A DNA stretch of 64,000 bases from a virus. Lineage: Duplodnaviria > Heunggongvirae > Uroviricota > Caudoviricetes. Positions 21,486 through 39,761 of the stretch are shown piece after piece (the first letter of the stretch is position 1; each line of letters begins with the position of its first letter). Under the pieces are notes generated by a model. The model was not told the DNA's origin. It did not search any database and saw nothing but the letters and a program-made list of their open reading frames with translations. The translations under genes were made by a program, and so were the position numbers. Location of the stretch: the IMG/VR virus record IMGVR_UViG_3300029935_000001, positions 64,001 through 128,000 of that record; one strand, 5' to 3'.

Positions 21486-23306
21486 ATGGCCGCTAAAGTC
21501 AACTACCTAAACAACCGCGATCTTCTTAAAGAGATCCATCTTTCAAAAAACTCGTTCTGCACTTTCCGCGATCCTGTAAACGATCACCAATATGATGTTA
21601 TTGTAGAATCAGTAGCTGATATTCCCAGTTCGATTCCTACTGCGCAGCAAAACCGTGCCGACCGCATTAAACGAGCAACCGGTGAAGTGATAGAGCCATC
21701 GACTATTCCGCACACAGATTTGGTTTTTCGAGTAATCGAGTGGGAGCATATTCCGTTTGCTCCGCCTAAGGCCCCTAAGGCCAAGAAGAAAAAAATTGCC
21801 GAACTGTTTGATTTTGACGAAGAGCTCGACGACGATGAGGATTTTCCTCCTCTCGACGATGTTCACATTCGACTCAACTTTCCACCATTTTACCATTATC
21901 GCTTAAATGCAAGTGGCGAGCCGTTTATTGTGGGCAAGTCACACTGGAAGGGCACGCTCGAAGATGGCGAATTTTGCAGAACACATGGGTCAATTAACAA
22001 CAACTTAGCTCGTATGTTCCTCAAGCTGTGCGAACGCTACGCTACTCGGTCAAACTGGCGAGGGTATTGCGTCGACGACCAAACCGAAGCCCTTACAAAA
22101 CGCGGTTGGCTCGATGAATCTAAAATTACCACTGCTGATGAAATCTTATCGTTTAACGGCAATGAGATGGTCTGGTCGCCAATACGCTCTATTTTCCGAG
22201 ATGTGTATAACGGCAAAATGTTTAAGATGACATCGCGCGGGATCGACGCGCTAATGACCCCAGGGCACAAAATAGTAACCGACAAGGGCTTGACTAAAAT
22301 CGAGCACCTACTCGAGTCTGACCGAATCGTTATCATGGGCAAGGCACCTGAGTCACCCGAGACCGCAATATACAACGACGCGACCGTTGAGCTCGCCGGA
22401 TGGATTGTAACCGAAGGTAATTATCAGCCCAATAAACAAATAGTTACAATTTACCAAAACGAAGGCAGGTATGCTGATCGGATCCGCACCTGTCTAAATA
22501 CCTTAGGGTATGAGTATTCCGAAAGTAAATCGTTAAAATCCGAAAACATAGCCTTCTCAATTCGCCGCAAGCACTGGGGCGAGATCGTAGCATTGCTTCC
22601 AAACAAAAATCTAACCATGGAATTCTTGCTATCACTAACTTCTGCACAAAAAGAGTTGCTGTTATCGACTATGATCGACGGTGACGGGCACCGCGATGGA
22701 CTAAAAATGCGGTACACTCAGAAGAATAAAGAGCATATGAACATGTTCCAAGCTCTGTGCGCGCTAACTGGTCGCAAAGCCAACGTGAAATTCGTAGAGA
22801 ATAAGATGTCATTCGATAAACCAACCTCTTACTACACAGCGACTATCTTTACTGAGCGAGGAAATCATACCCGCGGTTCTTCGGTCGACCTGCACGGCGG
22901 TAAAAACAACGGTCGCAAGTCGCCCGGACAGGGGAAGTTTGCTCACCCTAATTTTCCCACAGTAGACTACACCGGAACTGTTTGGTGTCCCGAGACTGAT
23001 TACGGATGCTTCTTGGCTCGTCGCAATGGCATGCCATACCTAACTGGCAACACCTACAACGAAGAAATGAGAGGCCAAGCATTGCTCCAACTTGCTCAAG
23101 TTGGCTTACAGTTTGACGAATACAAATCACAAAACCCGTTTGCCTACTATACTACGGCTATTAAAAATTCGTTCACTCGCATTGTGAATTTAGAAAAGCG
23201 CAATCAAAACATTCGCGACGACATTCTCGAAATTAATGGTTTGAATCCAAGTTGGAGTCGGCAAAACTCTGCCGCAGGCGGTAGTCATAACTACGATTAT
23301 GACTGA
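21486..23306 (+). CDS. Late-transcription sigma factor (T4 gp55-like) interrupted by an intein; mature protein ~278 aa
   Basis: N-terminal NYLNNRDLLKEI. The spliced junction reads L.ERYATRSNWRGY/TYNEEMRGQALLQL..VGLQFDEYKSQNPFAYYT.AI.NSF.R....EK, a gp55-type core. It lies upstream of gp47/gp46. Confidence 0.8.
   Translation: MAAKVNYLNNRDLLKEIHLSKNSFCTFRDPVNDHQYDVIVESVADIPSSIPTAQQNRADRIKRATGEVIEPSTIPHTDLVFRVIEWEHIPFAPPKAPKAKKKKIAELFDFDEELDDDEDFPPLDDVHIRLNFPPFYHYRLNASGEPFIVGKSHWKGTLEDGEFCRTHGSINNNLARMFLKLCERYATRSNWRGYCVDDQTEALTKRGWLDESKITTADEILSFNGNEMVWSPIRSIFRDVYNGKMFKMTSRGIDALMTPGHKIVTDKGLTKIEHLLESDRIVIMGKAPESPETAIYNDATVELAGWIVTEGNYQPNKQIVTIYQNEGRYADRIRTCLNTLGYEYSESKSLKSENIAFSIRRKHWGEIVALLPNKNLTMEFLLSLTSAQKELLLSTMIDGDGHRDGLKMRYTQKNKEHMNMFQALCALTGRKANVKFVENKMSFDKPTSYYTATIFTERGNHTRGSSVDLHGGKNNGRKSPGQGKFAHPNFPTVDYTGTVWCPETDYGCFLARRNGMPYLTGNTYNEEMRGQALLQLAQVGLQFDEYKSQNPFAYYTTAIKNSFTRIVNLEKRNQNIRDDILEINGLNPSWSRQNSAAGGSHNYDYD
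22068..23051 (+). mobile_element. Intein with LAGLIDADG homing endonuclease, 328 aa
   Basis: Block A CVDDQTEALT, block B TPGH, LAGLIDADG motifs ELAGWIVTEG and LLSTMIDGDG, block F VWCPETDYGCF, C-terminal YLTGN and +1 Thr. Confidence 0.92.
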
Positions 23307-24897
23307 CTTAACTGCGTTGTCTGCGCACAAATACCTAACATTATCTAAGTTAGAGGAAGCTGATACCAATGGCTTACTCACACCTTTCAAAGTGTTAGGT
23401 ATTTCAAACCCACGGCAATTGTTATATCATTACACACAACAATTATTTTCTATCCCACAATGTCCGTGCGGCAATAAGCTTGAGTGGCACGCAGACCGGC
23501 GGCGCTATCGAGCTTATTGCTCTAAAAAATGTACCGCAACCTATTCTCAACAAAAAGCTAAGCTAACTAATATTGAAAAATATGGTGCGTCTCGCTTTTC
23601 ACAGACTGCCGAATTTCGAGACAAAATTAAAAAAACTTCATTACAAAAGTTTGGCACAGAGCACTATAGCCAAACCGCCGAGTGGGTTTCTCGAACTGCT
23701 GCCACAAATCAATATCGCTTCGGAGTTGATCGCCCAGCACAGAATTCAGCCATCGCTGAGCGCACAAAGCAAACAAACATTGCGCGTTATGGTAGCGCGG
23801 CGCCTGCAGGCTCTGCTCAAATTATTCAAAAAATAAAACAAACAAACTTACAAACGCGTGGCGTCGACAACCCCAGCAAAGCTCATTACTCTGCCGACGC
23901 TCTTGAGTTTTTAACTAACCTTGAATTATTCGCTTCAGAGTGTGCTCAGTTATCTGTAGCAGATTTGGCAAACAAATACCAGATATCAGTTAAACCAATA
24001 TACGACCGCATTAACGCGTTAGAACTTTCTATTCCAAAAAACCCGTCGCGGCTTGAAACCGAAATTGCTAGCTACATATCTAGCATATACAACGGCCCAT
24101 TGTCGCAAAACGTTCGACATTTAATTACTCCGTATCAACTTGACTTACTCCTTCCAGACTTGAACATCGGAATTGAGTGTAACGGCAGCTACTGGCACAG
24201 CGAGCTAAACGGCCGTGATCGTTTATACCACATTAACAAAACCAAACGATTAGCCGAAAAAAACATACGCCTTATTCACATTTGGGAACATCAGTGGGCA
24301 AATCAGAGACCTATTGTTGAGTCTATGCTTTCCACTGCGGTCGGGCAGAATCATCGGATTTACGCACGGGACTGCCAAGTTAAAAAAATCTCGCCTGCTG
24401 CTAGCCGGGAGTTTTTATCACAAACCCACCTCCAAGGGTCTGCTGCTGCTACAGTCCACTATGGACTCTTTTGGCAAAACAAGCTTGTTTCGGTGATGTC
24501 ATTTGGGCAAGCCCGGTTTAACAAACAATACCAATGGGAGTTGATACGGTTTGCAAGCAAACTACACACCACTGTTGTTGGAGGGGCTTCTAAATTGTTT
24601 CGCCGTTTTATTCGAGATTTTTCTCCGACTACTGTATTATCGTACTGCGACCTTTCGTTTTCTGCTGGTAACTTATACCAAAAACTCGGGTTTGAATTTT
24701 CTCACAACAGCAACCCTAATTATTTTTACACTGCAAATTACAAAGATTTTTTTTCGCGGCACAAATTTCAAAAACACCGATTAAAAAATCTAATAGAAAA
24801 TTTCAATCCAGCACTATCCGAATGGGAAAATATGAAAGCTAACGGATGGGATAGAATTTGGGATTGCGGCAACGGAGTTTACATTTTTAAATTATGA
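23299..24897 (+). CDS. Free-standing putative homing endonuclease (Cys-rich N-terminus, (K/R)YG repeats, PD-(D/E)XK/Vsr-like nuclease, GNAT/Mom-like C-terminal domain)
   Basis: CPCG...YCSKKC, repeated TN..(K/R)(Y/F)G, QLDLLLPDLNIGIECNGSYWH and WELIRFA...VGGASKL...SYCD. It overlaps both neighbours and is paralogous to 39761..41632. Confidence 0.7.
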   Translation: MTDLTALSAHKYLTLSKLEEADTNGLLTPFKVLGISNPRQLLYHYTQQLFSIPQCPCGNKLEWHADRRRYRAYCSKKCTATYSQQKAKLTNIEKYGASRFSQTAEFRDKIKKTSLQKFGTEHYSQTAEWVSRTAATNQYRFGVDRPAQNSAIAERTKQTNIARYGSAAPAGSAQIIQKIKQTNLQTRGVDNPSKAHYSADALEFLTNLELFASECAQLSVADLANKYQISVKPIYDRINALELSIPKNPSRLETEIASYISSIYNGPLSQNVRHLITPYQLDLLLPDLNIGIECNGSYWHSELNGRDRLYHINKTKRLAEKNIRLIHIWEHQWANQRPIVESMLSTAVGQNHRIYARDCQVKKISPAASREFLSQTHLQGSAAATVHYGLFWQNKLVSVMSFGQARFNKQYQWELIRFASKLHTTVVGGASKLFRRFIRDFSPTTVLSYCDLSFSAGNLYQKLGFEFSHNSNPNYFYTANYKDFFSRHKFQKHRLKNLIENFNPALSEWENMKANGWDRIWDCGNGVYIFKL

Positions 24898-27800: not shown

Positions 27801-28856
27801 ATGGATTTAGGACACTGGGAGTTTTCTTGTGAGTTTGAGCCGACTGAGTGGTTCGGGTTTGTATATCGTATCATCGACCTCACTACGATGCAAGAATACA
27901 TAGGCAAAAAACAATTTTTTTTCACTGTCCGGAAAGTTGTCCGAGGCCGGAAAAACAGAAAAGTTGTCAAAAAAGAATCAGACTGGCGGACCTACACAAG
28001 CTCATCCGCCCATGTCAACGCGGCCATTGAATTAAAAGGCAAAGAAAACTTTCTTTTTAAAATCGAGTCATTGCATAAAACTAAAGGATCATTGTCTTAT
28101 GCCGAAGTCCAAACACAACTATTTGAAGATGTTCTTTGTGCTAAACTTGACGACGGTGTTACCCCCAAGTTTTATAACCGCCAGATCCCCGGTATTAAAT
28201 TTATACCACCAGAAGAGCACAGCGAAGAAACCAGAATCAAAATACAACATTCGTTGAAAACTCGATATGCTTCAAACCCGTATTGGAAGGATCACCTAAC
28301 TGACGAACAAAAAGAAGAGTTCTTGGATAATTTTTACCGAGGTGAAAACCATTATCTATACAGAAAAATGTCCACATTTGAACGGGCTCAGTTTATAGCT
28401 GACACTAAATCTGGCAAAAACAACCCGATGTTTGGGCAAACTCCTTGGAACAAAGGGTTAACATTCGAAGAGATGCACCAAGAGTTTGCCGAAGATGTCC
28501 GGCAAACTCTCCGTGAGAAATGTGTTTCTATGGGGTTTAAAGGACACTCGCACACAGAGGAGCAAAAAGAAGCGTGGCGCTCTGACGAACGACGAATTAA
28601 ACGCGGCGACGCTAACGGAATGTTTGGCAAACCATGCTTTTACAATATGTCAGATGATCGAAAAGCACAATGGGCCGCCAACATTAGCAAAGCATCAAAG
28701 GGCAAACCAAAAAGCGAAGACCATAAACAAAAGATACGGGCGGGACTAACAGGATTGAAAAGAAAGCAAGTAACCTGCCCGCATTGCGGAAAAACCGGCG
28801 GGGTAAACAATATGTTTCGCTATCACTTCGACCGCTGTAAATTTATCCAACATTGA
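27801..28856 (+). CDS. GIY-YIG endonuclease with NUMOD3-like C-terminal repeats (homing endonuclease-like)
   Basis: GFVYRI...EYIGKK, ESDW.TY.SS, FYN; C-terminal GKNNPMFG, HSHTEE, GKPKSEDHKQKI and CPHCGK. TAAATA lies at 27775-27780. Confidence 0.85.
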   Translation: MDLGHWEFSCEFEPTEWFGFVYRIIDLTTMQEYIGKKQFFFTVRKVVRGRKNRKVVKKESDWRTYTSSSAHVNAAIELKGKENFLFKIESLHKTKGSLSYAEVQTQLFEDVLCAKLDDGVTPKFYNRQIPGIKFIPPEEHSEETRIKIQHSLKTRYASNPYWKDHLTDEQKEEFLDNFYRGENHYLYRKMSTFERAQFIADTKSGKNNPMFGQTPWNKGLTFEEMHQEFAEDVRQTLREKCVSMGFKGHSHTEEQKEAWRSDERRIKRGDANGMFGKPCFYNMSDDRKAQWAANISKASKGKPKSEDHKQKIRAGLTGLKRKQVTCPHCGKTGGVNNMFRYHFDRCKFIQH

Positions 28857-28890
28857 AAAATTTTTCTGCGGTGAAAGATTTGTGTAAATA

Positions 28891-29835
28891 ACTGTGTCTA
28901 GCACAATGCGGCCGCGCTGAAGCTTATGGTGACGGGGTGCGTCGCGCCGCTAGACCAGTGAAAAATTCTTCTGAGACCATCTCATATAATTTCTAGGATA
29001 CACCCGATAGCTGCAACTTATGGAAGTAGTGTATCGGTAGTGCGTTTTTGCGTAATTTTCCCTACTCGGGTGGCAAATTAGGCACTCTTCAGCGGTGATG
29101 ACTAGTGACCGTGTCGTAACAGTTAACGGTTAGTCCCGGGACTCGACCAGTGGGTTGAGTGGGTTGTACCAAACTAGCGGAAAATGCTAGCCCTAGCCTT
29201 AAGCAAGCACCTTACGGACTATAAATAGAATTCTGGCTTTGTCTGGCATACGCTGGTATGCCCTCATTGAGCTAGCCGAGGTAGTGCTCGTCGCCAGCGG
29301 ATCTTGAGTGCCAACCCGACATGTTGATGATCTCAGCATGTCCGTTAAGGAGATACGAGAATCTCTAAATGATGTGGGCACTGCTAAAAGTCAACCCACG
29401 CCTTGGCCCTTTCGATTGTGGGGGAGTAAGCCAGGGTCCGCTGTCAGTCAAGTCTGGATGTATGGGGGTACAGGACAACCGCCTCCGCGCAATATGCAGA
29501 GTAATATGCTGCTGAGCAATCGCCTCCCACAATATGGTGTAAGAACTCACATGAAACTGAGCTTCTTTTTCATTTTTGCCCGTTCTGGGCAAAGTATGGC
29601 TGAATCTACATGAACCAGCAGCAGCTTAAATCACTTCGTTAACAAATAATAAAGCGTAACAACAATGTTAACCGTTTCTACAGTGGTTTAATAAAAAGCT
29701 CACGAGTGATGAGTGAGCTGCTAAGCGAAACGAATAAACGAAGTGAGCAAGCGAACTTCGTTCGCTTCTAAACTATCTTCTAAAGTAAAACCACTGTGGT
29801 GTTATTTGCGTCAGGGATTGCGAGCGTAAAATCAA
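28891..29835 (+). ncRNA. Candidate large structured non-coding RNA (family unassigned)
   Basis: About 1 kb with no credible ORF in a gene-dense genome. It starts right after TAAATA (28885-28890), contains many local and long-range helices, and ends at a terminator hairpin. The strand is inferred from the promoter. Confidence 0.55.
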
Positions 29836-29866
29836 AAAAAATAGCACATCCTTTGTGTGCTATTTA
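29833..29866 (-). terminator. Intrinsic terminator of the gp26/gp51 unit, possibly bidirectional
   Basis: AAATAGCACA-TCCTT-TGTGCTATTT inverted repeat preceded by an A-run, which is a U-tract on the minus strand. Confidence 0.7.
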
Positions 29867-30052
29867 GAAATACGGCAATCCAGTTTTCTTCACTACTTCG
29901 TGATTGTCTTTAACAATCTTCCCGATTATTTCCCGTTCCTTTTGGCTTAACCCTAGTGCTACATCGTATGTGACTCCTCCCCGCATGGACCAGGAAACGC
30001 GTAAGCATTCTTCTCGAATTGCCTGGCATTCCCGGTCCATAGTAGAGAACAT
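29864..30052 (-). CDS. gp51-like baseplate hub/tail assembly chaperone; possibly made as the -1 frameshift extension of the upstream gene
   Basis: W.MRGGV.Y..A..LS..ERE.I motif. The frame stays open upstream to the slippery site at 30094-30103. Confidence 0.65.
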   Translation of the reverse strand: MFSTMDRECQAIREECLRVSWSMRGGVTYDVALGLSQKEREIIGKIVKDNHEVVKKTGLPYF

Positions 30053-30078
30053 CTTCTCTACTTGTTCCCTACTTGCAG

Positions 30079-30918
30079 TTAAGAGTCGGAGCCGAAAAAA
30101 TTTGAAACGTCCAACGTAAACGGCGTTTCGTATGTTTGGTTACATTCTTCGTTTTGGCATTGGATAACCAATGGTTTTATTTCTGCTTTTTGCCGCAACT
30201 CGATAACTCGATCGCGTATCACGTTAAACGTTGCACTGTCAGCTTTGGCGACAAATTCTTCAATGTGCTGTTTGTCAGTTACTAACGTGTCGGGTGTTTT
30301 GATAGCTGCAATGCTGTTAGCAATAGCAGACACAGTAAGATGCTTTATTGCCGAAAACGCTTCCTGTATCCGCTTTAGCTTTTCATCCTCGGGCATCTGG
30401 GCAGCTGAGATGGCACTCAATGCTCGCTGCTCATTGAATTGAGTCTTATTATTTTCGTCTAGCTCGCGGTAGCTTAGTGGCTTACAGTATATTTCTAAAC
30501 CAGCAACTTGTAGAGCTTGGTCGTATTCAGGAGCTTCGAGTTGGTCAAGGATGGATCTCAAATCCAGTTCAAATTCGTTTTCGTGACCACAGTGGGGGCA
30601 TGTAGATTCGAAGTCCATCGAGTGCCCGTACGATGCAATTCTGATACCAATTAGTAATGCGTCTAAGTCGATTACTGGCATTTCCCATGGGTCTTGAATG
30701 GCAGGAACACAACTTTTTATTACATCAACAATAGCGCTGCCATTGAATAGCGCGTCAGGGGTGCGGTAAGTAATTTCATCGATTGCAGTCATTGGGTACA
30801 CCGGAACTTCCCCATTGGCTGGTAAGTTAAGCGCATTATTGTAGTAAAACTTGCCTCGACTCAATAGTGGCAAGTGAATAGCGGGTTGGCGAAAAAATTT
30901 AGCTAACGGATTAGACAT
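30079..30918 (-). CDS. gp26-like baseplate hub assembly protein / tail assembly chaperone
   Basis: LPL.SRGKFY, VYPMTAIDEI, IDLDALLI.IRIASYG, two Cys clusters (CPHC and CQNEEC) and a C-terminal NFF. Confidence 0.75.
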   Translation of the reverse strand: MSNPLAKFFRQPAIHLPLLSRGKFYYNNALNLPANGEVPVYPMTAIDEITYRTPDALFNGSAIVDVIKSCVPAIQDPWEMPVIDLDALLIGIRIASYGHSMDFESTCPHCGHENEFELDLRSILDQLEAPEYDQALQVAGLEIYCKPLSYRELDENNKTQFNEQRALSAISAAQMPEDEKLKRIQEAFSAIKHLTVSAIANSIAAIKTPDTLVTDKQHIEEFVAKADSATFNVIRDRVIELRQKAEIKPLVIQCQNEECNQTYETPFTLDVSNFFGSDS

Positions 30919-30965: not shown

Positions 30966-33752
30966 ATGACTGATCAAAATATCCTTGACATGCTTGACGA
31001 AATACGGCGCCAAACGCAAATCTTAGAGTCGATTGCAAAAGGCACAAGTGTCGGGCCCAACCGACCGAGCCCGGCCAGCCGGAACGCCCCGGGAGAGACC
31101 CGCGAGGAGCGCCAGCAGCGCAAAGCTGCTCGCGAGCTTGGAAACCAGTTTGACGATCTAGCAGACTCGTCAAAGGGCGTTACAGTAAGTTTTGATCAGC
31201 TTGCTCGCCGCACTAACTTAGCAATGCTAGCGTTTGCTAAGCAAACACTACAGATGTCAAACAACTTGTCCTCGCTTAAACCGGCTATTAGTGCAGTTTC
31301 AAATGTAGCTGCTACTGCGGTGTCGGCAATAACTGGCGCGGTAGGTAATGCGGTATCAACGCTCAGTCTTCTGGGCGGCCCTATTACAAAGATTGTGGGT
31401 ACCATAACCGGCGGCCTAGTCGGTGCCGTGGGCACAGCATCAGCGGAATTAATAAAAGCGGCCGGCGAGGGTGCTGGGCTAGTGCTTGAGCAAATGGAAG
31501 CAATTAGCAATAATTACACAGCAATTGCTCAACTCGGCGGCGCTACTGCCCGCGGCATGACTGACTTGTATGAATCAGTAGGTGAAACCGGTATCCGTAT
31601 GGAGCAGTGGGCAGCGTTAGTAGGCAAACATTCTGAGAAGTTGGCCTTTTCCTTTGGGTCTGTGGGCGATGGCTTGTTAACCGTCAATCAAGCTGCTGAG
31701 AAAATGCGCAAGACAGGCATTACTGAGCAGTTTCTGCGGTTAGGAGTCGGAGTAGATGAACAAGCATCGGCGCTAGCATCGTATTCGAAAATGCACTCGA
31801 TGAATTCACGCCGCGAAAAGCTCAGTGTTGATCAGCTTATCGAAGGAACCCAGCGCTGGTACACTGAAATAGACCAAATAGCAAGGGCAACTGGTAAATC
31901 TCGCGAAGCCATTAACGAAAGTGTGCTCGCTCAACAGCGTAGTCTGCGCTGGGGCGCGACAATGGAGATCCTCAACCGTCGCCAAACTGACCTAGGAAAT
32001 AAGCTCGCTGCTAGCTTTGAAAAAGTTGACGCTGTAACTGGCGGCACGTTTGTTACTGATGCATTGCGCGACATCTTCTCAGGTGGCCGGTTGGGTAAGG
32101 AAGCGCAATCACTAATGACATTGGCCGGGCAAGACATAATTCCGATAGTTGACAATATCAAACGAGGGTTACTTGGTGCCGACGAAGGTATGAGTCAAAT
32201 TGTCGACGCAATTGCTAAGCGCGGTGGCACAGGCGCTATTAACTTAGAGTCATTGGTTGGTAACCAATTAGCGGAGCTCGGCGAAGTCCTAAGAGCTGCG
32301 CGCCTGTCGCAAAACTTTATCGCCGCTGGTGAATCGCTTGATGCATATGCAGGAAAATTAAAAGACTCGCAGCAAAGCGTAATCAAAGGCAACGACCTCA
32401 CTACCAATAACATTGCTAGCACGCAAGAAGCAGTAATGGATATTTACGCTGAGATTCAAAAAGCGTTTAGCAAGGTACTACCTTCTGCCTCGACTCAAAT
32501 CGCTAATTTTGCCGATGTGATTAGCGAAAAATTGCCGCTAATGGCTCAAGCGATTGACGACTATATCGAAAAATTAACCGGAAATCGTCCAGTTTCGGCT
32601 TTTAATAAGCAGATGCAGGCTGCCGAATCTGCGCGCCGCAACACAGCAACAGTTTCGGGGACCCCCGAAACTGGTCAGCGCGGAACGTTCTGGGAAAACG
32701 TATCCGGAAAAGTGTCTCCGGAAAACGTAGCGTCTCTGCTGTCGGATGTTGGAATAACCAACACGCGGGCCCAGGCTAATATTTTAGCACAGTTGCAAGC
32801 AGAATCAGGGTTCCGTCCTCGATCCGAAAACCTTCAGTACAGCGGAAAGAAATTGTTTGAAATGTACGGTCCCAATCAAACTCGCAATAAAGTTAGATTT
32901 AATAGTTTAGCCGAAGCCGAAGCGCTATCGAAGCAAGGCCCTGAGGCAATTGGAAACGTAATATATGGCGGCCGCATGGGGAATGCCGTCAATGAAGGGT
33001 TTTTGTATAGAGGCCGAGGTCTTATTCAGCTCACCGGCAAGGATAATTATGCAAAGTATGGACGAATAATCGGCGAAGACTTGGTTAATAACCCAGACCT
33101 AGCTAATGATCCGCAAATTGCTAAGAAAATTGCCGTCGCTTATATGCAAGAGCAACAAAAAGCCGGCGTAAACTTAGCTGACATACAGCAAGTAGGAAAA
33201 GCAATGGGATTTGCTACGAACGACCAAGCGTCGCGAGCTGCGCTAGCATCAGATTTTGAAAAACGGTTGCAACGCGGCGGATTCCGTGACGGTGGAATTT
33301 CCACCGGTCCAATGACCGGATACACACAGCTTTTACACGGAACTGAGGCTATTGTGCCTTTGCCCGACGGAAAAACTATACCAGTAGACTTAAATTTTTC
33401 GAGTATTACTCGAAAAATGACGCAAGATTTTAAAACTACAAATGCTGATCAAAATAAGTTCAGCCCGGCAGATTTAGTTAAGAACTTAACGGCTGATTTT
33501 AAAACTACAATGGCCGGCCCGCTTGAAAAGCTAGCACTTAATTTAAACAGCATTCAAGCACAGCAACAATTGCCAGCACGCGTAGAGCAGCCATCTGGCC
33601 TTAACTCGCCCGAGCTACGCGAAATGAACGCCAAAATGACTGAACAAATGAGCGCAATGAATGCACAAATTTCGAAGCTGACTGAAGTGGTAGATATCCT
33701 GCGCCGCAGCAATGCTACTAATGAAAAGCTTTTACAAGCGGCACGAAACTAA
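30966..33752 (+). CDS. Tape-measure-like protein with an internal GH19 (chitinase/lysozyme) peptidoglycan hydrolase domain
   Basis: Long Ala/Gly-rich helical body. AQLQAESGF...SENL and YGGRMGN...GFLYRGRGLIQLTGKDNY are GH19 signatures, followed by GGI..GP..GY...LHG.EAIVPL. TAAATA lies at 30935-30940. Confidence 0.75.
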   Translation: MTDQNILDMLDEIRRQTQILESIAKGTSVGPNRPSPASRNAPGETREERQQRKAARELGNQFDDLADSSKGVTVSFDQLARRTNLAMLAFAKQTLQMSNNLSSLKPAISAVSNVAATAVSAITGAVGNAVSTLSLLGGPITKIVGTITGGLVGAVGTASAELIKAAGEGAGLVLEQMEAISNNYTAIAQLGGATARGMTDLYESVGETGIRMEQWAALVGKHSEKLAFSFGSVGDGLLTVNQAAEKMRKTGITEQFLRLGVGVDEQASALASYSKMHSMNSRREKLSVDQLIEGTQRWYTEIDQIARATGKSREAINESVLAQQRSLRWGATMEILNRRQTDLGNKLAASFEKVDAVTGGTFVTDALRDIFSGGRLGKEAQSLMTLAGQDIIPIVDNIKRGLLGADEGMSQIVDAIAKRGGTGAINLESLVGNQLAELGEVLRAARLSQNFIAAGESLDAYAGKLKDSQQSVIKGNDLTTNNIASTQEAVMDIYAEIQKAFSKVLPSASTQIANFADVISEKLPLMAQAIDDYIEKLTGNRPVSAFNKQMQAAESARRNTATVSGTPETGQRGTFWENVSGKVSPENVASLLSDVGITNTRAQANILAQLQAESGFRPRSENLQYSGKKLFEMYGPNQTRNKVRFNSLAEAEALSKQGPEAIGNVIYGGRMGNAVNEGFLYRGRGLIQLTGKDNYAKYGRIIGEDLVNNPDLANDPQIAKKIAVAYMQEQQKAGVNLADIQQVGKAMGFATNDQASRAALASDFEKRLQRGGFRDGGISTGPMTGYTQLLHGTEAIVPLPDGKTIPVDLNFSSITRKMTQDFKTTNADQNKFSPADLVKNLTADFKTTMAGPLEKLALNLNSIQAQQQLPARVEQPSGLNSPELREMNAKMTEQMSAMNAQISKLTEVVDILRRSNATNEKLLQAARN

Positions 33753-33867
33753 CCACCATTATAATCGGCGGTAAATACACCATGATCAGTAAATATCTAA
33801 AACAAAACGTTAATGACACTGAGCCAACAAGATCCAGTCTTGGGTTGTTGTATTGGAGAATCACATA

Positions 33868-35625
33868 ATGGCCGAACAGACTAAAGGATGGAAAAAGTAT
33901 TTTAAGCTAGCCAACCAAGACGGAGTGATGAGTCCTATTTCTGGACAGACCTCCCGACCGGGGCACGAGCATGCTTCACAGTCGTTTGGATTTAAGAACT
34001 ACGCATCGTCGTTGCCAGAAGTGTATGTTGGGCATCCAAATCGTATTGAGCGTTATAATCAATACGAAGCAATGGATGCCGACTCGGAGATCAATGCGTG
34101 TTTGGACATCATTGCTGAATTTTCCACTCAATGGAACGAAAAAAATAACACACCGTTTGAAATACGTTTCAAAGACAAACCTACGGATTCTGAGGTAGAA
34201 ATCCTCAAAAAGCAGCTTCAACAGTGGGTCAAGTTGAATCAATTTGACAAGCGTATGTTCAAGCTATTCCGCAATACAATTAAATATGGGGATCAAGTAT
34301 TCGTTCGTGACCCTGAGACATTTGAGTTAATGTGGGCTGACATGACCAAAGTAGTTAAGGTTATCGTCGACGAGCTGCGTGGCAAAGAGCCCGAGCAGTA
34401 TGTAATACGCGACCTTAACCCTAACTTTAAGAATTTAACTGTTGCAGCCAAGACTACGCTTGATGCCGCTGCTAACCCTGTAGGCGGGGCCTCGCCGGCT
34501 CAAGGATATACTGTGCCTGGGTCTCAAGTTGGTGGCACCACCGGCCGATTTGCAGCCGCAGTAAATGAAAGTGTAATAGACGCTGAGCATGTACGACACA
34601 TCTCGCTTAGCGAAGGGCTAGATCCAAATTGGCCGTTCGGTACGTCAATCCTCGAAAACATCTTCAAGGTGTTTAAGCAAAAAGAGCTACTTGAAGACGC
34701 AATCCTAATCTACCGCGTACAGCGCGCGCCCGAGCGCCGAGTGTTTTACATCGACGTAGGCAACATGATGCCTCACATGGCTATGGCGTTTGTAGAGAGA
34801 GTAAAAAACGAAATCCACCAGCGCCGCATTCCAACTATGAACGGCGGCGGATCGTCAATGCTAGACGCAGCCTACAACCCGCTTAGCATTCACGAAGATT
34901 ATTTCTTCCCGCAGACTGCCGAAGGCCGAGGCTCGAAAGTCGAAACGCTCCCAGGCGGCGAAAATCTTGGTCAAATCGACGATCTTAAGTATTTTAACAA
35001 CAAACTATGTCGTGGTCTACGAGTACCGTCTAGTTATTTGCCAACCGGGCCTGACGATCAAACTACGCCACTCAGCGACGGTCGTGTTGGTACTGCACTA
35101 ATACAAGAGTATCGCTTCAACCAGTATTGTCAACGCCTTCAGAGTCTTATAATCTCTGCGCTTGACGACGAGTTTAAGATGTTCTTAAATTGGCGTGGGT
35201 TCAATATTGACTCTGGCATTTTTGACTTAACCTTTACTCCGCCGCAAAACTTTGCGTCTTATCGGCAGACTGAGCTCGATTCAACGCGTGTTAATGTATT
35301 CCAGTCACTTGAGCAAGTTCCATATCTGAGTAAGCGATTTTTGTTGCAACGATTTCTTGGGCTTTCGAAAGAAGAAATGCTCGAAAACGAAACTCTGTGG
35401 CACGAAGAGCGAGACGAACCCGGGGCAATTACTCCAACCGGTGATGACTTGCGATCAGTTGGTGTTATGCCAGGCGGCATGAATGCCGACATTGAAATGG
35501 GCGACGAGTTTGGCGAGCCCGGAGATCTCGAAGCTGGGGAGATGGAAATGCCCTCAGAAGCTCCGGGCGCACCGCCGTTAGGTGGACCGACTCCTCCAGC
35601 TGCAGCAACTCCTCCGGCGCAATAA
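33868..35625 (+). CDS. Portal vertex protein, gp20-like
   Basis: LLEDAILIYRVQRAPERRVFYIDVGNM, EDYFFPQ...GRGSKVETLPGGENLG.IDDL.YF..KL..GLRVP.S. Start moved to the ATG after GGAG at 33868. Tandem TAAATA motifs at 33772 and 33790. Confidence 0.95.
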   Translation: MAEQTKGWKKYFKLANQDGVMSPISGQTSRPGHEHASQSFGFKNYASSLPEVYVGHPNRIERYNQYEAMDADSEINACLDIIAEFSTQWNEKNNTPFEIRFKDKPTDSEVEILKKQLQQWVKLNQFDKRMFKLFRNTIKYGDQVFVRDPETFELMWADMTKVVKVIVDELRGKEPEQYVIRDLNPNFKNLTVAAKTTLDAAANPVGGASPAQGYTVPGSQVGGTTGRFAAAVNESVIDAEHVRHISLSEGLDPNWPFGTSILENIFKVFKQKELLEDAILIYRVQRAPERRVFYIDVGNMMPHMAMAFVERVKNEIHQRRIPTMNGGGSSMLDAAYNPLSIHEDYFFPQTAEGRGSKVETLPGGENLGQIDDLKYFNNKLCRGLRVPSSYLPTGPDDQTTPLSDGRVGTALIQEYRFNQYCQRLQSLIISALDDEFKMFLNWRGFNIDSGIFDLTFTPPQNFASYRQTELDSTRVNVFQSLEQVPYLSKRFLLQRFLGLSKEEMLENETLWHEERDEPGAITPTGDDLRSVGVMPGGMNADIEMGDEFGEPGDLEAGEMEMPSEAPGAPPLGGPTPPAAATPPAQ

Positions 35626-35649
35626 ATAAAGTATCAGGATATAACAATT

Positions 35650-35868
35650 ATGATTTTAAGTGAATTATACGAGCCAAGCAAGCCCGGTTATCAAAGCCAA
35701 GAAGACGATGAGTCTCGTATAGCTCTCAGCGATCTCAGAAAAACAAAATTAACTTTGCGCCAACTAAACAAGTTGCGGCGTTTAATGGATGTGCGTAATT
35801 TTGAGATGAAAGAAAATCTTAAAAAAGTTAAAACTCAATACGCGCCGCCGCCGCAACAGATGATGTGA
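35650..35868 (+). CDS. Small head-region protein (72 aa)
   Basis: Compact ORF with an AGGA Shine-Dalgarno and TAAATA (35623-35628), between the portal and core genes. Contains RKTKLTLRQLNKLR. Confidence 0.7.
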   Translation: MILSELYEPSKPGYQSQEDDESRIALSDLRKTKLTLRQLNKLRRLMDVRNFEMKENLKKVKTQYAPPPQQMM

Positions 35869-35871
35869 TTG

Positions 35872-35923
35872 AAAATATAGGCAAAATGAGTCGTTTTGAC
35901 CATTAACTGCCTATATTTTTTTT
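35872..35923 (+). terminator. Stem-loop with T-run after the 72-aa gene
   Basis: AAAATATAGGCA ... TGCCTATATTTT inverted repeat followed by Ts. The loop is large, so a terminator role is uncertain. Confidence 0.4.
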
Positions 35924-35968
35924 GTGTGGTGTAAATACAAGCAGAACCTAGCCTTTGGGAGAATTTTA

Positions 35969-36754
35969 ATGAGTAAGAAATTTGAGCAACTGATCGAATT
36001 TGTGATCAATGACGACGAACAAAAAGCTCGCGAGCTTTTTCATGAAATCGTAGTAGAAAAGAGCCGCGAAATTTACGAAAGCCTTATGGCCGACGAGTTT
36101 GGCGACGAAAGCAGCGATATTGCTGCTGGAGTCGAAGCAGACGAAGAAGGATTTAGTGACGCAGGCGACGAAGATCTTGACTTTGACAGCGAAGAAGGCA
36201 CCGACGAGTTTGGTGCCGAAGAAGAAGTTGACTTTGACAGCGATAACGATGTCGAAGAGCTTGAGGACCGTGTTGTTGATCTCGAAGACAAACTCGACGA
36301 GCTAATGGCTGAATTTGACGCTCTTATGGCCGGCGACGAAGAAGGTGCCGACGAGTTTGGCACCGAAGAAGAAGTCGACTTCGACGGCGAAGAAGGCACC
36401 GACGAGTTTGGTGACGAAGAAGAAGTCGACTTTGACGGCGAAGAAGACGAGTTTCAAGAAGGCCTACATGAAGAAGTTAAACTAACTCCAGTGTCGAAGC
36501 CAAGCAATGCTGACGCTGCTGACAACCGTAAGTCAGTGGGCCTACAAAACTCAGGCAAAGGCGGTGTAAAAGCTGGTGGCAACCCAATTAAGACTGACAC
36601 TTCGGCAGAAACTGGCCGTTCAGCTCCAGGAGCTAAGAAAATGGGCGTAGCCGGACCGCAAGATGCTGCCCGCGGCGCATTCAAGTCAAAAGCACCAGCT
36701 TCGGCGAAATCTGAACCAGCTGGCACTGACAAGCAGAGCATTGTTCGCAAGTAA
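35969..36754 (+). CDS. Highly acidic prohead core / internal protein
   Basis: Start moved to MSKKFEQL after GGGAG. D/E-rich body with a basic tail, in the position of T4 gp67/68 between portal and protease. TAAATA lies at 35932-35937. Confidence 0.7.
   Translation: MSKKFEQLIEFVINDDEQKARELFHEIVVEKSREIYESLMADEFGDESSDIAAGVEADEEGFSDAGDEDLDFDSEEGTDEFGAEEEVDFDSDNDVEELEDRVVDLEDKLDELMAEFDALMAGDEEGADEFGTEEEVDFDGEEGTDEFGDEEEVDFDGEEDEFQEGLHEEVKLTPVSKPSNADAADNRKSVGLQNSGKGGVKAGGNPIKTDTSAETGRSAPGAKKMGVAGPQDAARGAFKSKAPASAKSEPAGTDKQSIVRK
36191..36439 (+). repeat. 51-bp in-frame repeat (EEG[TA]DEFGxEEEVDFD[GS]), three copies
   Basis: Copies start at ~36191, ~36338 and ~36389; the last two are tandem. Confidence 0.85.
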
Positions 36755-36766
36755 TAAGGACTGGCG

Positions 36767-37399
36767 ATGAGATTACTCCAAGAACACCTTACTTTTGACG
36801 CCGCCCGCATTGTTGTTGAGGGCGACGAAAAAGGTAAAAACCTTTTTATGAAAGGAATATGTATTCAAGGTGGTGTTAAAAACGCCAACCAGCGAGTATA
36901 TCCGGTGAGCGAGATCTCTAAAGCTGTTACTACTTTAAATGAACAAATTTCTGGTGGTTATTCAGTCCTTGGGGAAGTAGATCACCCAGATGATTTAAAA
37001 ATCAACCTCGACCGGGTCAGCCATATGATCACTGAAATGTGGATGGATGGCCCTAACGGGTTTGGAAAACTAAAAATATTGCCCACTCCAATGGGCAACC
37101 TAGTGCGCACAATGCTTGAAAGCGGTGTAAAGCTAGGAGTTTCGAGCCGAGGCAGCGGAAACGTTAACGAGGCATCAGGGCACGTCAGCGAATACGAAAT
37201 TGTAACCGTAGACGTGGTTGCCCAGCCTAGTGCTCCTAATGCATATCCAACAGCAATCTACGAAGGATTGCTGAATATGCGCCATGGTCATCGTTTGTTT
37301 GACATGGCAAAGGAAGCTAGTGCGGACACAAAAGTTCAAAGATACTTGAAAGGTGAGATTACCAAGCTGATCAAGGATCTAAAGATATCAGGAGAGTAA
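36767..37399 (+). CDS. Prohead protease, gp21-like
   Basis: GICIQG..KNAN.RVYP, LGEVDHP, INLDRVSH, LGVSSRGSG and DVVAQPSAPNA. Confidence 0.95.
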   Translation: MRLLQEHLTFDAARIVVEGDEKGKNLFMKGICIQGGVKNANQRVYPVSEISKAVTTLNEQISGGYSVLGEVDHPDDLKINLDRVSHMITEMWMDGPNGFGKLKILPTPMGNLVRTMLESGVKLGVSSRGSGNVNEASGHVSEYEIVTVDVVAQPSAPNAYPTAIYEGLLNMRHGHRLFDMAKEASADTKVQRYLKGEITKLIKDLKISGE

Positions 37400-37401
37400 G
37401 C

Positions 37402-38493
37402 ATGATTGATGCTATGAAGCCATTGCTTGAAAGTGGCATTATCAACGAGGAAACTCGCGAAGCTATCAACGAAGCTTGGAACGCCAAGCTCAACGAAGCT
37501 CGCGAAGAAATTCGCTCAGAAATGCGCGAAGAGTTTGCTCAGCGATATGACCATGACAAAGCTGTAATGGTTGAGGCTCTTGATCGTCTGGTAACAGACA
37601 AGCTTATGGAAGAAATTCAGCAGGTTCAAGCTGAGCGTCTTGCACTAGCTGAGGATCGCGTAAAAGCTCAAGTTAAACTTCGTGAAGATTCAACTCGTTT
37701 CAACAACTTCATGGTAGGGAAGCTAGCTGAAGAAATCAGTGAGCTGCAAAAAGATCGTAAAACACAAAAGGCCGGCCTCGCAAAGATGGAGTCTTTTGTT
37801 ATGCACGCACTTGCTCGTGAGCTAAATGAATTTGCTCAAGACAAGCGCGAAGTGGTAGAAACCAAAGTTCGCCTGGTAAAAGAAGCACGCCAGCAGCTAT
37901 CTGCCCTTAAGAAGCGATTTGTTGCCGAAAACTCAGCCAAACTAAGCAAGTCGGTTGCAGGCCATCTAAAGTCTGAGCTAACACAGCTTCACGAGGACAT
38001 CAAAGTCGCCCGTGAAAACAGTTTTGGTCGTCGTATTTTTGAAGCATTTGCTACAGAGTTCGGCGCAACACACCTAAACGAAAACGCAGAGATTCGTAAG
38101 TTAATGTCAGTGATCAAAGAAAAAGACGCTGCCCTTAATGAGTCTCGCAAACAAGCTCAACAAGCTAAAATGATTGTTGAGACCAAGGAAAAGCAAATTC
38201 GCGTGATCCAAGAGTCGACTAAGCGTCAAGAAATCTTGGACGAGTTGCTAGGAACCCTCAAAGAGGACAAAGCATCCGTAATGCGTAATTTACTTGAAAA
38301 CGTCCAAACAGCTCGTCTAAAGGGCGCTTTCGAAAAGTATCTACCAGCTGTATTGGCTGAGCGTGCTACTGTGGAATCGACATTTAAGAAGCCACTTGTA
38401 GAATCGCGCGCTACTGTAACTGGTGATAAATCTGCCGCGGTTGAAGATAAGAATAACGTTATCGACCTCAAGCGTCTGGCAGGGCTTAACTAA
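37402..38493 (+). CDS. Prohead scaffold protein, gp22-like
   Basis: Coiled-coil protein with an RRIFEAFA motif, located between the protease and the major capsid gene. Confidence 0.85.
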   Translation: MIDAMKPLLESGIINEETREAINEAWNAKLNEAREEIRSEMREEFAQRYDHDKAVMVEALDRLVTDKLMEEIQQVQAERLALAEDRVKAQVKLREDSTRFNNFMVGKLAEEISELQKDRKTQKAGLAKMESFVMHALARELNEFAQDKREVVETKVRLVKEARQQLSALKKRFVAENSAKLSKSVAGHLKSELTQLHEDIKVARENSFGRRIFEAFATEFGATHLNENAEIRKLMSVIKEKDAALNESRKQAQQAKMIVETKEKQIRVIQESTKRQEILDELLGTLKEDKASVMRNLLENVQTARLKGAFEKYLPAVLAERATVESTFKKPLVESRATVTGDKSAAVEDKNNVIDLKRLAGLN

Positions 38494-38518
38494 AACAAAA
38501 AAGGAATAGGAGAAAAAT

Positions 38519-39712
38519 ATGTCCAAGGAATTACTTGAAAGCCGTTGGAACGAGGCTAAAGAAGCCCTACTAGAAGGCCTTGCTGGTACTCGTCGTTCAA
38601 CAATGAGCGTAGTGCTCGAAAACACTCGCCGCCATCTGCTATCGGAATCGGCTGCTGCTGGCAGCACCGTGTCTGGTAACATTGCTACCCTTAACCGCGT
38701 GATTCTACCGGTTATCCGTCGAGTTATGCCGACCGTTATCGCTAACGAGCTAGTCGGTGTTCAGCCAATGACCGGCCCAGTGGGCCAGATCCACACACTG
38801 CGCGTTCGTTATGGCACCACTATGCAGGATAACTCTGCTGCTGGTACTTCGACTGTCGCTGGCGAAGAAGCGCTAAGCCCATTCAAGATCGCCCAAGCCT
38901 ACTCGGCCGGTGTTGGTAGTGTTCAGAACTCGTACCAAGGCGCATCTACTGCGCAAATGGAAGCTGTTGGTGGTCGTAACATTTCGGTTCAGTTGCTAAA
39001 GCAAGCTGTCGAAGCTAAGACCCGCAGGCTACAAGCTCGCTGGACCTTCGAAGCTGCTCAAGACGCGCAAGCTATGCACGGTATTGATATTGAAGCTGAA
39101 ATCATGGCCGCTCTAGCGCAGGAAATCACTGCTGAAATCGACCAAGAGATCCTTCTCTCGCTACGTAGCCTAGCCGCTACCGAGTTCTCGTTTGACCAAG
39201 CTGCTGTGTCCGGTACTGCTACTTTCGTTGGTGACGAGCACGCTGCCCTAGCTGTTCTTATCAACCGCGTTGCTAACCTAATCGCTCAGCGCACACGTCG
39301 TGGTGCTGGTAACTGGGCGGTTGTTTCCCCAACCGCGCTGACCGTACTCCAGTCGGCTACTACTTCGGCCTTTGCTCGTACCACCGAAGGCACGTTTGAA
39401 GCTCCAACCAACACCAAGTTTGTTGGTACGCTAAACAGCGCCATGAAGGTCTATGTTGACTCCTACGCCAACGACGCTACACCTGTGCTTGTTGGTTACA
39501 AAGGTTCTTCGGAAGCTGATGCGGCTGCGTTCTACTGCCCATACATTCCGCTAATGAGCTCTGGTGTTGTGCTTGATCCAACTACGTTCGAACCAGTCGT
39601 AAGCTTTATGACACGTTATGGTTACCTCGAGTTGACTAACACCGCATCGAGCTTTGGCAACGCAGGGGACTATGTTGGTGCTATTTCGCTGTCGAACCTC
39701 TCGTTCAGCTAA
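38519..39712 (+). CDS. Major capsid protein, gp23-like
   Basis: IRRVMPT.IA.ELVGVQPMTGP.G.I..LR.RY, VEAKTR.L.A.WT.E.AQD..A.HGID.E.E, FYCPYIPL and F.TRYG. Confidence 0.97.
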   Translation: MSKELLESRWNEAKEALLEGLAGTRRSTMSVVLENTRRHLLSESAAAGSTVSGNIATLNRVILPVIRRVMPTVIANELVGVQPMTGPVGQIHTLRVRYGTTMQDNSAAGTSTVAGEEALSPFKIAQAYSAGVGSVQNSYQGASTAQMEAVGGRNISVQLLKQAVEAKTRRLQARWTFEAAQDAQAMHGIDIEAEIMAALAQEITAEIDQEILLSLRSLAATEFSFDQAAVSGTATFVGDEHAALAVLINRVANLIAQRTRRGAGNWAVVSPTALTVLQSATTSAFARTTEGTFEAPTNTKFVGTLNSAMKVYVDSYANDATPVLVGYKGSSEADAAAFYCPYIPLMSSGVVLDPTTFEPVVSFMTRYGYLELTNTASSFGNAGDYVGAISLSNLSFS

Positions 39713-39735: not shown

Positions 39736-39761
39736 ACAAAAAGCCCCTTGCGGGGCTTTTT
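39736..39761. terminator. Bidirectional intrinsic terminator after the major capsid gene
   Basis: AAAAAGCCCC-TTGC-GGGGCTTTTT between convergent genes. Confidence 0.9.

Follow-up and report, generated by a model that had tools for sequence, protein, structure and literature searches.

In the 64,000-nucleotide (nt) window analysed here, which covers positions 64,001 to 128,000 of the IMG/VR virus record IMGVR_UViG_3300029935_000001, a gp26-like baseplate-hub assembly gene very probably makes two proteins, of 279 and 351 residues, by a -1 slip on the heptamer TTTTTTC near its 3' end. The -1 slip is strongly supported by the comparison of homologous sequences, and there is a high likelihood that the shift gives two forms of the protein that are the counterparts of T4 gp26 and gp51 and would work as chaperone-like assembly factors. 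The record that holds the window is 323,407 bp long with direct terminal repeats and is the complete genome of a giant (jumbo) phage. Its nearest cultured relatives are jumbo myophages with protein identities of just 27-34%, among them Sinorhizobium phage Phosso, Agrobacterium phage Atu_ph07, the E. coli phages 121Q/PBECO4, Klebsiella phage RaK2 and Pseudomonas phage PA5oct, while a megablast of the region against phage records returned no match. The parts of the locus are the following:

30079..30918, minus strand: gp26-like baseplate-hub assembly gene, 0 frame, 279 amino acids (aa), the short form (open reading frame (ORF) list, PF12322, phrog_150).
30094..30100, minus strand: slippery heptamer T_TTT_TTC in X_XXY_YYZ phase, the proposed -1 site, with Phe274-Phe275 in the P and A sites (sequence, conservation).
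30097..30103, minus strand: overlapping second heptamer A_AAT_TTT in X_XXY_YYZ phase, not conserved (sequence).
29864..30094, minus strand: -1-frame extension of 76 codons plus stop (29864-29866), which gives the 351-aa long form its C-terminal domain, helical by prediction (translation, alignment A2).
29864..30052, minus strand: 62-aa ORF as a gene caller would see it (with a call of 58 aa on record), which makes up the 3' part of the extension and not the full domain (ORF list).

The gp26-like protein matches Pfam family PF12322 (T4_baseplate) over residues 60-275 with 64.3 bits (cut-off 24.5; E 1.7e-17), it also matches phrog_150, "baseplate hub", and its gene is the one PF12322 gene in the complete 323,407-bp genome. 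It carries four conserved cysteines arranged as two CxxC pairs; the residues invariant in alignment A1 are C107, C110, C254, C259, F274 and F275, the last two being the C-terminal FF of the PF12322 type. In all, 5080 homologues of the protein were found, and the best 120 all finish in [NS]FF followed by 1-11 residues. On the minus strand the 279-aa ORF ends TCA AAT TTT TTC GGC TCC GAC TCT TAA, with the heptamer four codons ahead of the stop TAA (30079-30081), and the two overlapping heptamers that the initial annotation had reported here are both in slippery phase. From 30139 onwards the -1 frame is open; once the slip has occurred, the codon CGG (Arg) at 30094-30092 is followed in that frame by the rest of the residues R-L-R-L-L-T-A-S-R-E-Q-V-E-K and then by the 62-aa ORF, so that the predicted long product has 275 + 76 = 351 aa, in agreement with the fusion of about 351 aa expected earlier. 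Between the heptamer and the ATG at 30052 there are 14 codons without any ATG, GTG or TTG, and the homology of the extension reaches 14 codons upstream of that ATG. In the proposed mechanism, most ribosomes would stop at the TAA and give the 279-aa protein, and a fraction would slip back by one base with the two tRNA-Phe on U_UUU_UUC, would read CGG as Arg and would add 76 residues to give the 351-aa protein.

The comparison covered about 270 homologous loci in all, from cultured jumbo phages, uncultured relatives and T4-like cyanophages; TTTTTT[CT] is kept in all of them except in-frame fusions, and the -1 frame is open throughout. In eleven divergent cultured phages and the window, T_TTT_TTC (nine cases) or T_TTT_TTT (two cases) stands at the conserved C-terminal Phe-Phe, 4-14 codons ahead of the stop, and the -1 frame is then open for 72-84 codons. 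Exact TTTTTTC was found in 79/79 uncultured IMG/VR loci gathered by protein alignment and placed by protein motif, with the T-run not a criterion; the heptamer is likewise present in 74/74 non-fused loci of a second IMG/VR set placed via the downstream W-x-M-R-G motif, and in 65/65 unique cyanophage loci. A pool of 127 non-redundant frameshift-type loci was, unlike these three counts, chosen by the T-run, and it holds TTTTTTC 126 times and TTTTTTT once. The preceding codon ends in T in 127/127 of these loci (AGT 54, AAT 49, GAT 15, ACT 3, CAT 2, GCT 2, TCT 1 and GGT 1), although the T-ended member of these codon pairs makes up 52-63% elsewhere in the same genes, and the first Phe codon is TTT in 127/127 loci versus 69% elsewhere in the same genes. 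Since the T-ended preceding codon and the choice of TTT are invariant here and less used elsewhere, the conservation of the slip site is, by codon usage, far beyond chance. Moreover, genes whose proteins share only 27-63% identity still keep the synonymous sites of the heptamer, and a G directly follows it in 126/127 loci. Of the two slippery heptamers proposed initially, T_TTT_TTC is thus the conserved one and A_AAT_TTT is not: T_TTT_TTY alone is kept, and A_AAT_TTT occurs just where the preceding codon is AAT, which marks it, on the aligned sequences, as a by-product of the preceding residue being Asn.

A sequencing error or a gene in decay has a negligible probability as the cause of the arrangement: homopolymer runs are prone to indel errors, but the same arrangement recurs in independent assemblies by the hundred and in finished genomes of cultured phages, and purifying selection is seen on both frames, so that the comparative data effectively refute this explanation.

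Selection on the -1 frame is apparent from the first position after the slip. In the 0 frame, the residue next to FF is variable (A, G, V, D or E, always GNN) while the -1-frame codon is always CGN, that is Arg, which indicates that selection acts on the -1 frame and not on the 0 frame. In the close clade the -1 frame stays open for exactly 78 codons, and elsewhere its open length is 63-84 codons; the extension is conserved from the first post-slip residue as F-F-R-x-[RQ]-L-L ... W-[YF]-M-R-G-G ... E-R ... (alignment A2, 44 extensions, with F-F-R, L-L, W, R-G-G, Y and R invariant). The main proposal of the initial annotation, a probable programmed -1 frameshift, is therefore borne out, with the T-run, the -1 phase and the coding sequence upstream of the ATG all conserved in the aligned ends of the homologues, and natural fusions in existence. 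A different explanation would do without recoding, with the downstream ORF translated alone, from the ATG at 30052 or by termination-reinitiation, and the T-run kept for the C-terminal Phe-Phe. In its favour, even T4 gp26 keeps the FF, with codons (TTC TTT) that form no slip site; the two ORFs overlap as ATGA or TAATG in several cultured relatives; and gene callers predict small ORFs downstream. Nevertheless, two synonymous features, the T ahead of the first Phe codon and the use of TTT for that codon, are invariant, and the peptide is conserved straight after the slip, upstream of any start, which in the window would be after the 14 codons that lack one. In the 127 loci, the first possible -1-frame start is scattered from codon 3 to codon 38 with no conserved start codon, and an upstream start in the -1 frame is also lacking in 99/127. 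In addition, the ATG of the window sits in the loop of a 9-bp hairpin, and in-frame fusions show the extension to be the C-terminal domain of the same protein. All in all, translation without recoding appears improbable, and the -1 slip is preferred.

The in-frame fusions were found with a profile of the extension, which was searched against 1.84 billion representative proteins and found 461 relatives; about 20 of the best 150 matches are proteins of 319-351 aa with the extension at the C-terminus. A word-based homology search with the 76-aa extension had found the window's own protein only, no family of Pfam, PHROGs or NCBIfam matched the extension, and an initial IMG/VR scan using a single protein gave no pattern match. 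The continuous fusion ORFs, from the profile matches and six IMG/VR loci, span 319-357 aa and combine PF12322 with the extension, PF12322 being at the N-terminus in 10/10 fusion proteins tested. Their junction reads ...L-D-x4-F-R-x-x-[LI]..., with a single Phe, and the DNA at the six IMG/VR loci (CAA TTT AGA, TAT TTT CGG, ACT TTC CGA, CGT TTT CGT, ATA TTC CGG) holds a T6 run in none, which means that the fusions are not homopolymer sequencing errors. An AlphaFold2 model of one natural fusion (P0149) has a mean predicted local distance difference test (pLDDT) score of 94.8 and a predicted template modelling score of 0.89, with the extension folded as helices at a pLDDT of 90-98. Because natural fusions carry the extension and fold with high confidence, it is, as modelled, a genuine C-terminal domain of the gp26-like protein; and since in the frameshift-type loci the two parts lie in different frames and the junction is aligned, they can be joined there by nothing but a -1 shift at the heptamer. 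Among other jumbo phages, proteins of 450-690 aa (Erwinia phages phiEaH2 and Special G, Klebsiella phage Eowyn, Aeromonas phage PS1) match the gp26-like fold in BFVD with E values of 1e-4 to 1e-6, which suggests, from models, that larger fused gp26-like relatives exist.

The lambda G/GT system is not known to have a strong stimulator, and a downstream RNA structure is common but not obligatory for -1 shifts. Across 44 close relatives RNAalifold gave 0 conserved pairs downstream of the heptamer, and the long form is probably the minor product because the window has no conserved RNA stimulator. Its own sequence at 29990-30093 folds with a minimum free energy of -34.5 kcal/mol (z -3.25) and holds one local structure:

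30041..30062, minus strand: 9-bp hairpin (AGUAGAGAA / UUCUCUACU) whose 4-nt loop holds the ATG of the 62-aa ORF (RNA fold).

This hairpin begins 32 nt after the heptamer, which is not the spacing of a stimulator, and it is specific to the window, being not conserved in the 44 relatives; the position of the ATG inside its loop argues against independent initiation of the 62-aa ORF. More generally, the 60 nt after the heptamer fold somewhat better than shuffled sequences in 90 non-redundant relatives (mean z -1.2, with 32 below -2). In a 12-locus subclade (alignment A7: L099, L102, L103, L112, L115, L118, L131, L137, L139, L142, L143 and L169), the heptamer is followed, 6 nt further on, by a 12-bp stem (GCCUAAUUAG paired with CUAAUUAGGC); 94% of the cells of this stem are paired, compensatory changes occur at three pairs, and 0/500 shuffles reach the observed covariation. 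At this spacing, a further subclade (L116, L126, L146, L153 and others) carries a stem that differs from the first.

These structures bear on transcriptional slippage, in which RNA polymerase would add one U on the T6 run and give the same protein. Efficient slippage by bacterial RNA polymerase is known for runs of 8-9 or more. The protein made in this way would not differ, no conserved stimulatory structure is present in the window, and longer runs are found in RsoM2USA (T9; L007, about 2270-2285) and XacN1 (T7; L011), where such slippage could contribute. Against this, T6 is shorter than the runs known for efficient slippage, exactly T6 followed by C is kept in 126/127 loci at a fixed codon phase, and the covarying A7 stem has the 6-nt spacing typical of ribosomal stimulators, which favours a ribosomal shift. 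Slippage of the polymerase thus has only a slight probability as the general source of the long form, and the ribosomal -1 slip remains the favoured explanation. The heptamer itself is of an efficient kind: H_HH.U_UU.Y heptamers are among the most efficient in E. coli, where U_UU.U_UU.C is listed among those that shift at more than 0.1% without stimulators (Sharma et al. 2014, PMC4066793).

The two products would correspond to T4 gp26 and gp51, which T4 has as two paralogous genes. T4 gp26 (208 aa) and gp51 (249 aa) each match the full PF12322 profile, gp26 consisting of PF12322 alone and gp51 of PF12322 over residues 1-201 (E 3.9e-52) plus a 48-residue tail; as in the window, the short form ends at FF and the long form adds a C-terminal tail. 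Two PF12322 genes are present in T4, and a single one in each of the five other genomes compared (that of the window, cyanophage S-RSM4, 121Q, PA5oct and SP-15). Unlike the window, where one gene has a -1 frameshift, T4 has its two genes in divergent orientation and no slip site: gene 51 is divergent from gene 26, gene 25 lies downstream of 26, and gp26 ends ...EFFELL with the codons TTC TTT, which are not slippery. The earlier picture of gp26 and gp51 as an adjoining pair therefore applies here, as one gene with its extension, and does not extend to T4, where gene 51 does not come after 26. According to Leiman et al. (2010), gp26 and gp51 are hub assembly chaperones, gp51 being needed for assembly and absent from the particle (PMC3004832, Table 2), and their roles in hub assembly were unclear for decades (PMC3004832).

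Cyanophages provide a link between the two arrangements. The g26 of S-RSM4 (SRSM4_230) ends GCC AAT TTT TTC GGA TAG, with the same heptamer and flanks as the window (AAT TTT TTC GG), and the 44-aa ORF annotated as a separate gene, "g51" (SRSM4_229), occupies the -1 frame, which is already open at the heptamer. This arrangement recurs in all 65 unique cyanophage loci. Compared in hhalign with a profile built from 26 T4-like gp51 proteins, the cyanophage -1 extension (63-65 aa) matches the gp51 tail with a probability of 90-92% and E about 1e-6, and the alignment extends upstream of the annotated cyanophage ATG. The jumbo in-frame fusions are, over the full length of the fusions, collinear with gp51 (probability 58%, E 1e-4). 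In the window clade, on the other hand, where the extension has 76 aa versus the 48 aa of the T4 gp51 tail, the best match of the extension profile in gp51 is the tail, with E 7e-4 and a probability of 26%, and the comparison with the cyanophage extension (A2 versus A8) gives 2.8%, with the E-R motif in the same register; by these alignments the window extension is of a different sequence family from that of cyanophages. As candidate homologues of the extension, whole T4 gp51, gp25 and gp28 were rejected (hhalign 2.6%, 1.0% and 0.2%), which leaves the gp51 tail as the sole candidate; a search of the T4 genome in six frames with the extension profile gave no match, which is weak negative evidence because no candidate passed the initial filter of the search. 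The name "gp51-like" given to the 62-aa ORF is thus right by position and architecture and probably by descent, the latter not being proven for the window clade, and homology to the whole of gp51 was not borne out. Collectively, the gp26/gp51 correspondence is supported by domain architecture and gene count, with a tail homology that appears strong in cyanophages and weak in the window clade. A precomputed Pfam list for the T4-like gp51 homologues P0273-P0364 gives PF12322 and PF28602, and the latter presumably covers the gp51 tail.

A further comparison is with the tail assembly chaperones of the lambda G/GT type. Xu, Hendrix and Duda are said to have described in 2004 a conserved -1 frameshift in the tail assembly chaperone genes of long-tailed phages. 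According to the review by Atkins et al. (PMC5009743), long-tailed phages conserve the G-T frameshift, "except T4". The two products predicted for the window (279 and 351 aa) would have their N-terminal part in common, as lambda gpG and gpGT do, owing to a frameshift shortly before the first ORF ends; in both systems the gene lies beside a tape-measure or tape-measure-like gene and no strong stimulator is present, and the products of the window's relatives are undetected in virions. The neighbour is the following:

30966..33752, plus strand: tape-measure-like protein of 928 aa, divergent from the gp26-like gene, with a hydrophobic, Gly/Ala-rich N-terminal part and a GH19 lysozyme-like domain (PF00182, phrog_181).

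Pfam PF00182 (GH19, chitinase class I / lysozyme-like) lies at residues 676-733 of this protein, whose RaK2 counterpart is annotated as similar to tail tape measure protein, and we infer that it is the tape measure. Its counterpart in phage CBB, CBB_251, is an abundant virion protein (29 peptides), and the table of CBB virion proteins detected by mass spectrometry, which concerns a relative and not the phage of the window, includes CBB_251 and omits the gp26-like CBB_250. Similarly, the PA5oct annotation carries an electrospray tandem mass spectrometry (ESI-MS/MS) note on the neighbouring protein and none on the gp26-like protein. In Bacillus phage SP-15, the gene order sheath, tube, gp26-like, small ORF and tape measure places the gene in the canonical chaperone slot, and in IG49 the gp26-like gene comes directly after the tube gene, so that the canonical order is partly kept there. 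The N-terminal part of about 100 residues folds most like solved tail assembly chaperones (HK97, YqbN), with low Z, while there is no sequence match to any Pfam chaperone family. By inference, both forms would be non-virion assembly factors for the baseplate hub and the tape measure, in which the shared chaperone-like N-terminal domain would hold the tape-measure protein and the extension would dock the complex to another tail component. That the gp26-like pair works like G/GT, an equivalence that draws on gene position, the low-Z fold match and the absence from virion proteomes, is on analogy somewhat favoured over its denial. The initial proposal of this equivalence fits the logic of two products and the tape-measure-like neighbour; the gene order in the window is not the canonical one.

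Several observations weigh against a joint interpretation in which a -1 shift gives counterparts of gp26 and gp51 that act as chaperones. Regarding function, the chaperone fold matches have low Z and a high root-mean-square deviation, and Foldseek gave no match; the gp26-like protein is about twice the usual size of a chaperone and has a four-Cys zinc-ribbon-like unit and extra helices, features that, together with the fused-only state of some relatives, set it apart from lambda G/GT. The gp26-like gene of the window does not lie in the slot between tube and tape-measure genes and is divergent from the tape-measure-like gene, which has the portal gene next. Moreover, fusion-only lineages make the long form alone, which does not fit a strict need for a G:GT ratio. 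As for the slip, the window has no canonical stimulatory structure 5-9 nt downstream of the heptamer, and in some cultured relatives (Phosso, 121Q, XbC2 and fHe-Yen9-04) an ATG overlaps the stop, so that coupled re-initiation could also occur in these phages. Finally, the homology of the window-clade extension to the gp51 tail looks weak, as does that to the cyanophage extension.

If one looks beyond the window, the gp26 family may be the missing tail assembly chaperone of T4-like and giant myophages: an ancestral T_TTT_TTC shift in the style of G/GT would have been kept in cyanophages and jumbo phages, T4 would have duplicated the gene (26 for the short form, 51 for the long form) and some lineages would have fused the two parts. 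We hold the chances for and against this scenario to be evenly balanced. If true, T4 gp26 and gp51 would gain a concrete mechanism and the sole cited exception to the tail-chaperone frameshift would go; a large, ecologically dominant phage group, covering marine cyanophages and the RaK2/121Q-type jumbo phages used in phage therapy work, would share a one-gene, two-protein trick of which the two genes of T4 would be the resolved form. The extension appears in hundreds of public genomes as a tiny gene of its own, called "gp51" or hypothetical, or goes unannotated (in PA5oct, RaK2 and RsoM2USA no downstream gene is annotated), and the true long product would be absent from protein databases if this is right. 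In the full-text literature, from whose coverage most subscription journals fall outside, no paper reporting a frameshift in gp26 or baseplate-hub genes was found, and the word "frameshift" is absent from the genome papers on RaK2, PA5oct, 121Q-type phages, CBB, Atu_ph07, RsoM2USA and MIJ3.

In two Firmicute phages, SP-15 (L175, 1492-2431) and Streptococcus phage vB_SagM-GXN1 (L176, 1492-2500), the gp26-like gene is followed by an ORF in the +1 frame instead of the -1 frame, the +1 frame being open across the stop, and in GXN1 a CCC_C run stands ahead of CGA; this may be a +1 version of the two-product scheme. The +1-frame peptide of SP-15 showed no similarity to the gp51 profile, and this phage is used here as evidence for gene order only.

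Around the locus, the portal, prohead protease and major head genes lie downstream of the tape-measure-like gene, at 33853-39712. On the other side, directly downstream of the frameshift locus, there are about 1 kb without a long ORF (28885-29860), preceded on the map by a 351-aa ORF at 27801-28856 on the plus strand. Two large ORFs, at 23299-24897 (plus strand) and 39761-41632 (minus strand), match the homing-endonuclease families phrog_3339 and phrog_559 with E values of 1e-121 to 1e-125; one of these homing-endonuclease-like ORFs is located between sigma-like and SbcD-like genes and the other after the major head gene.

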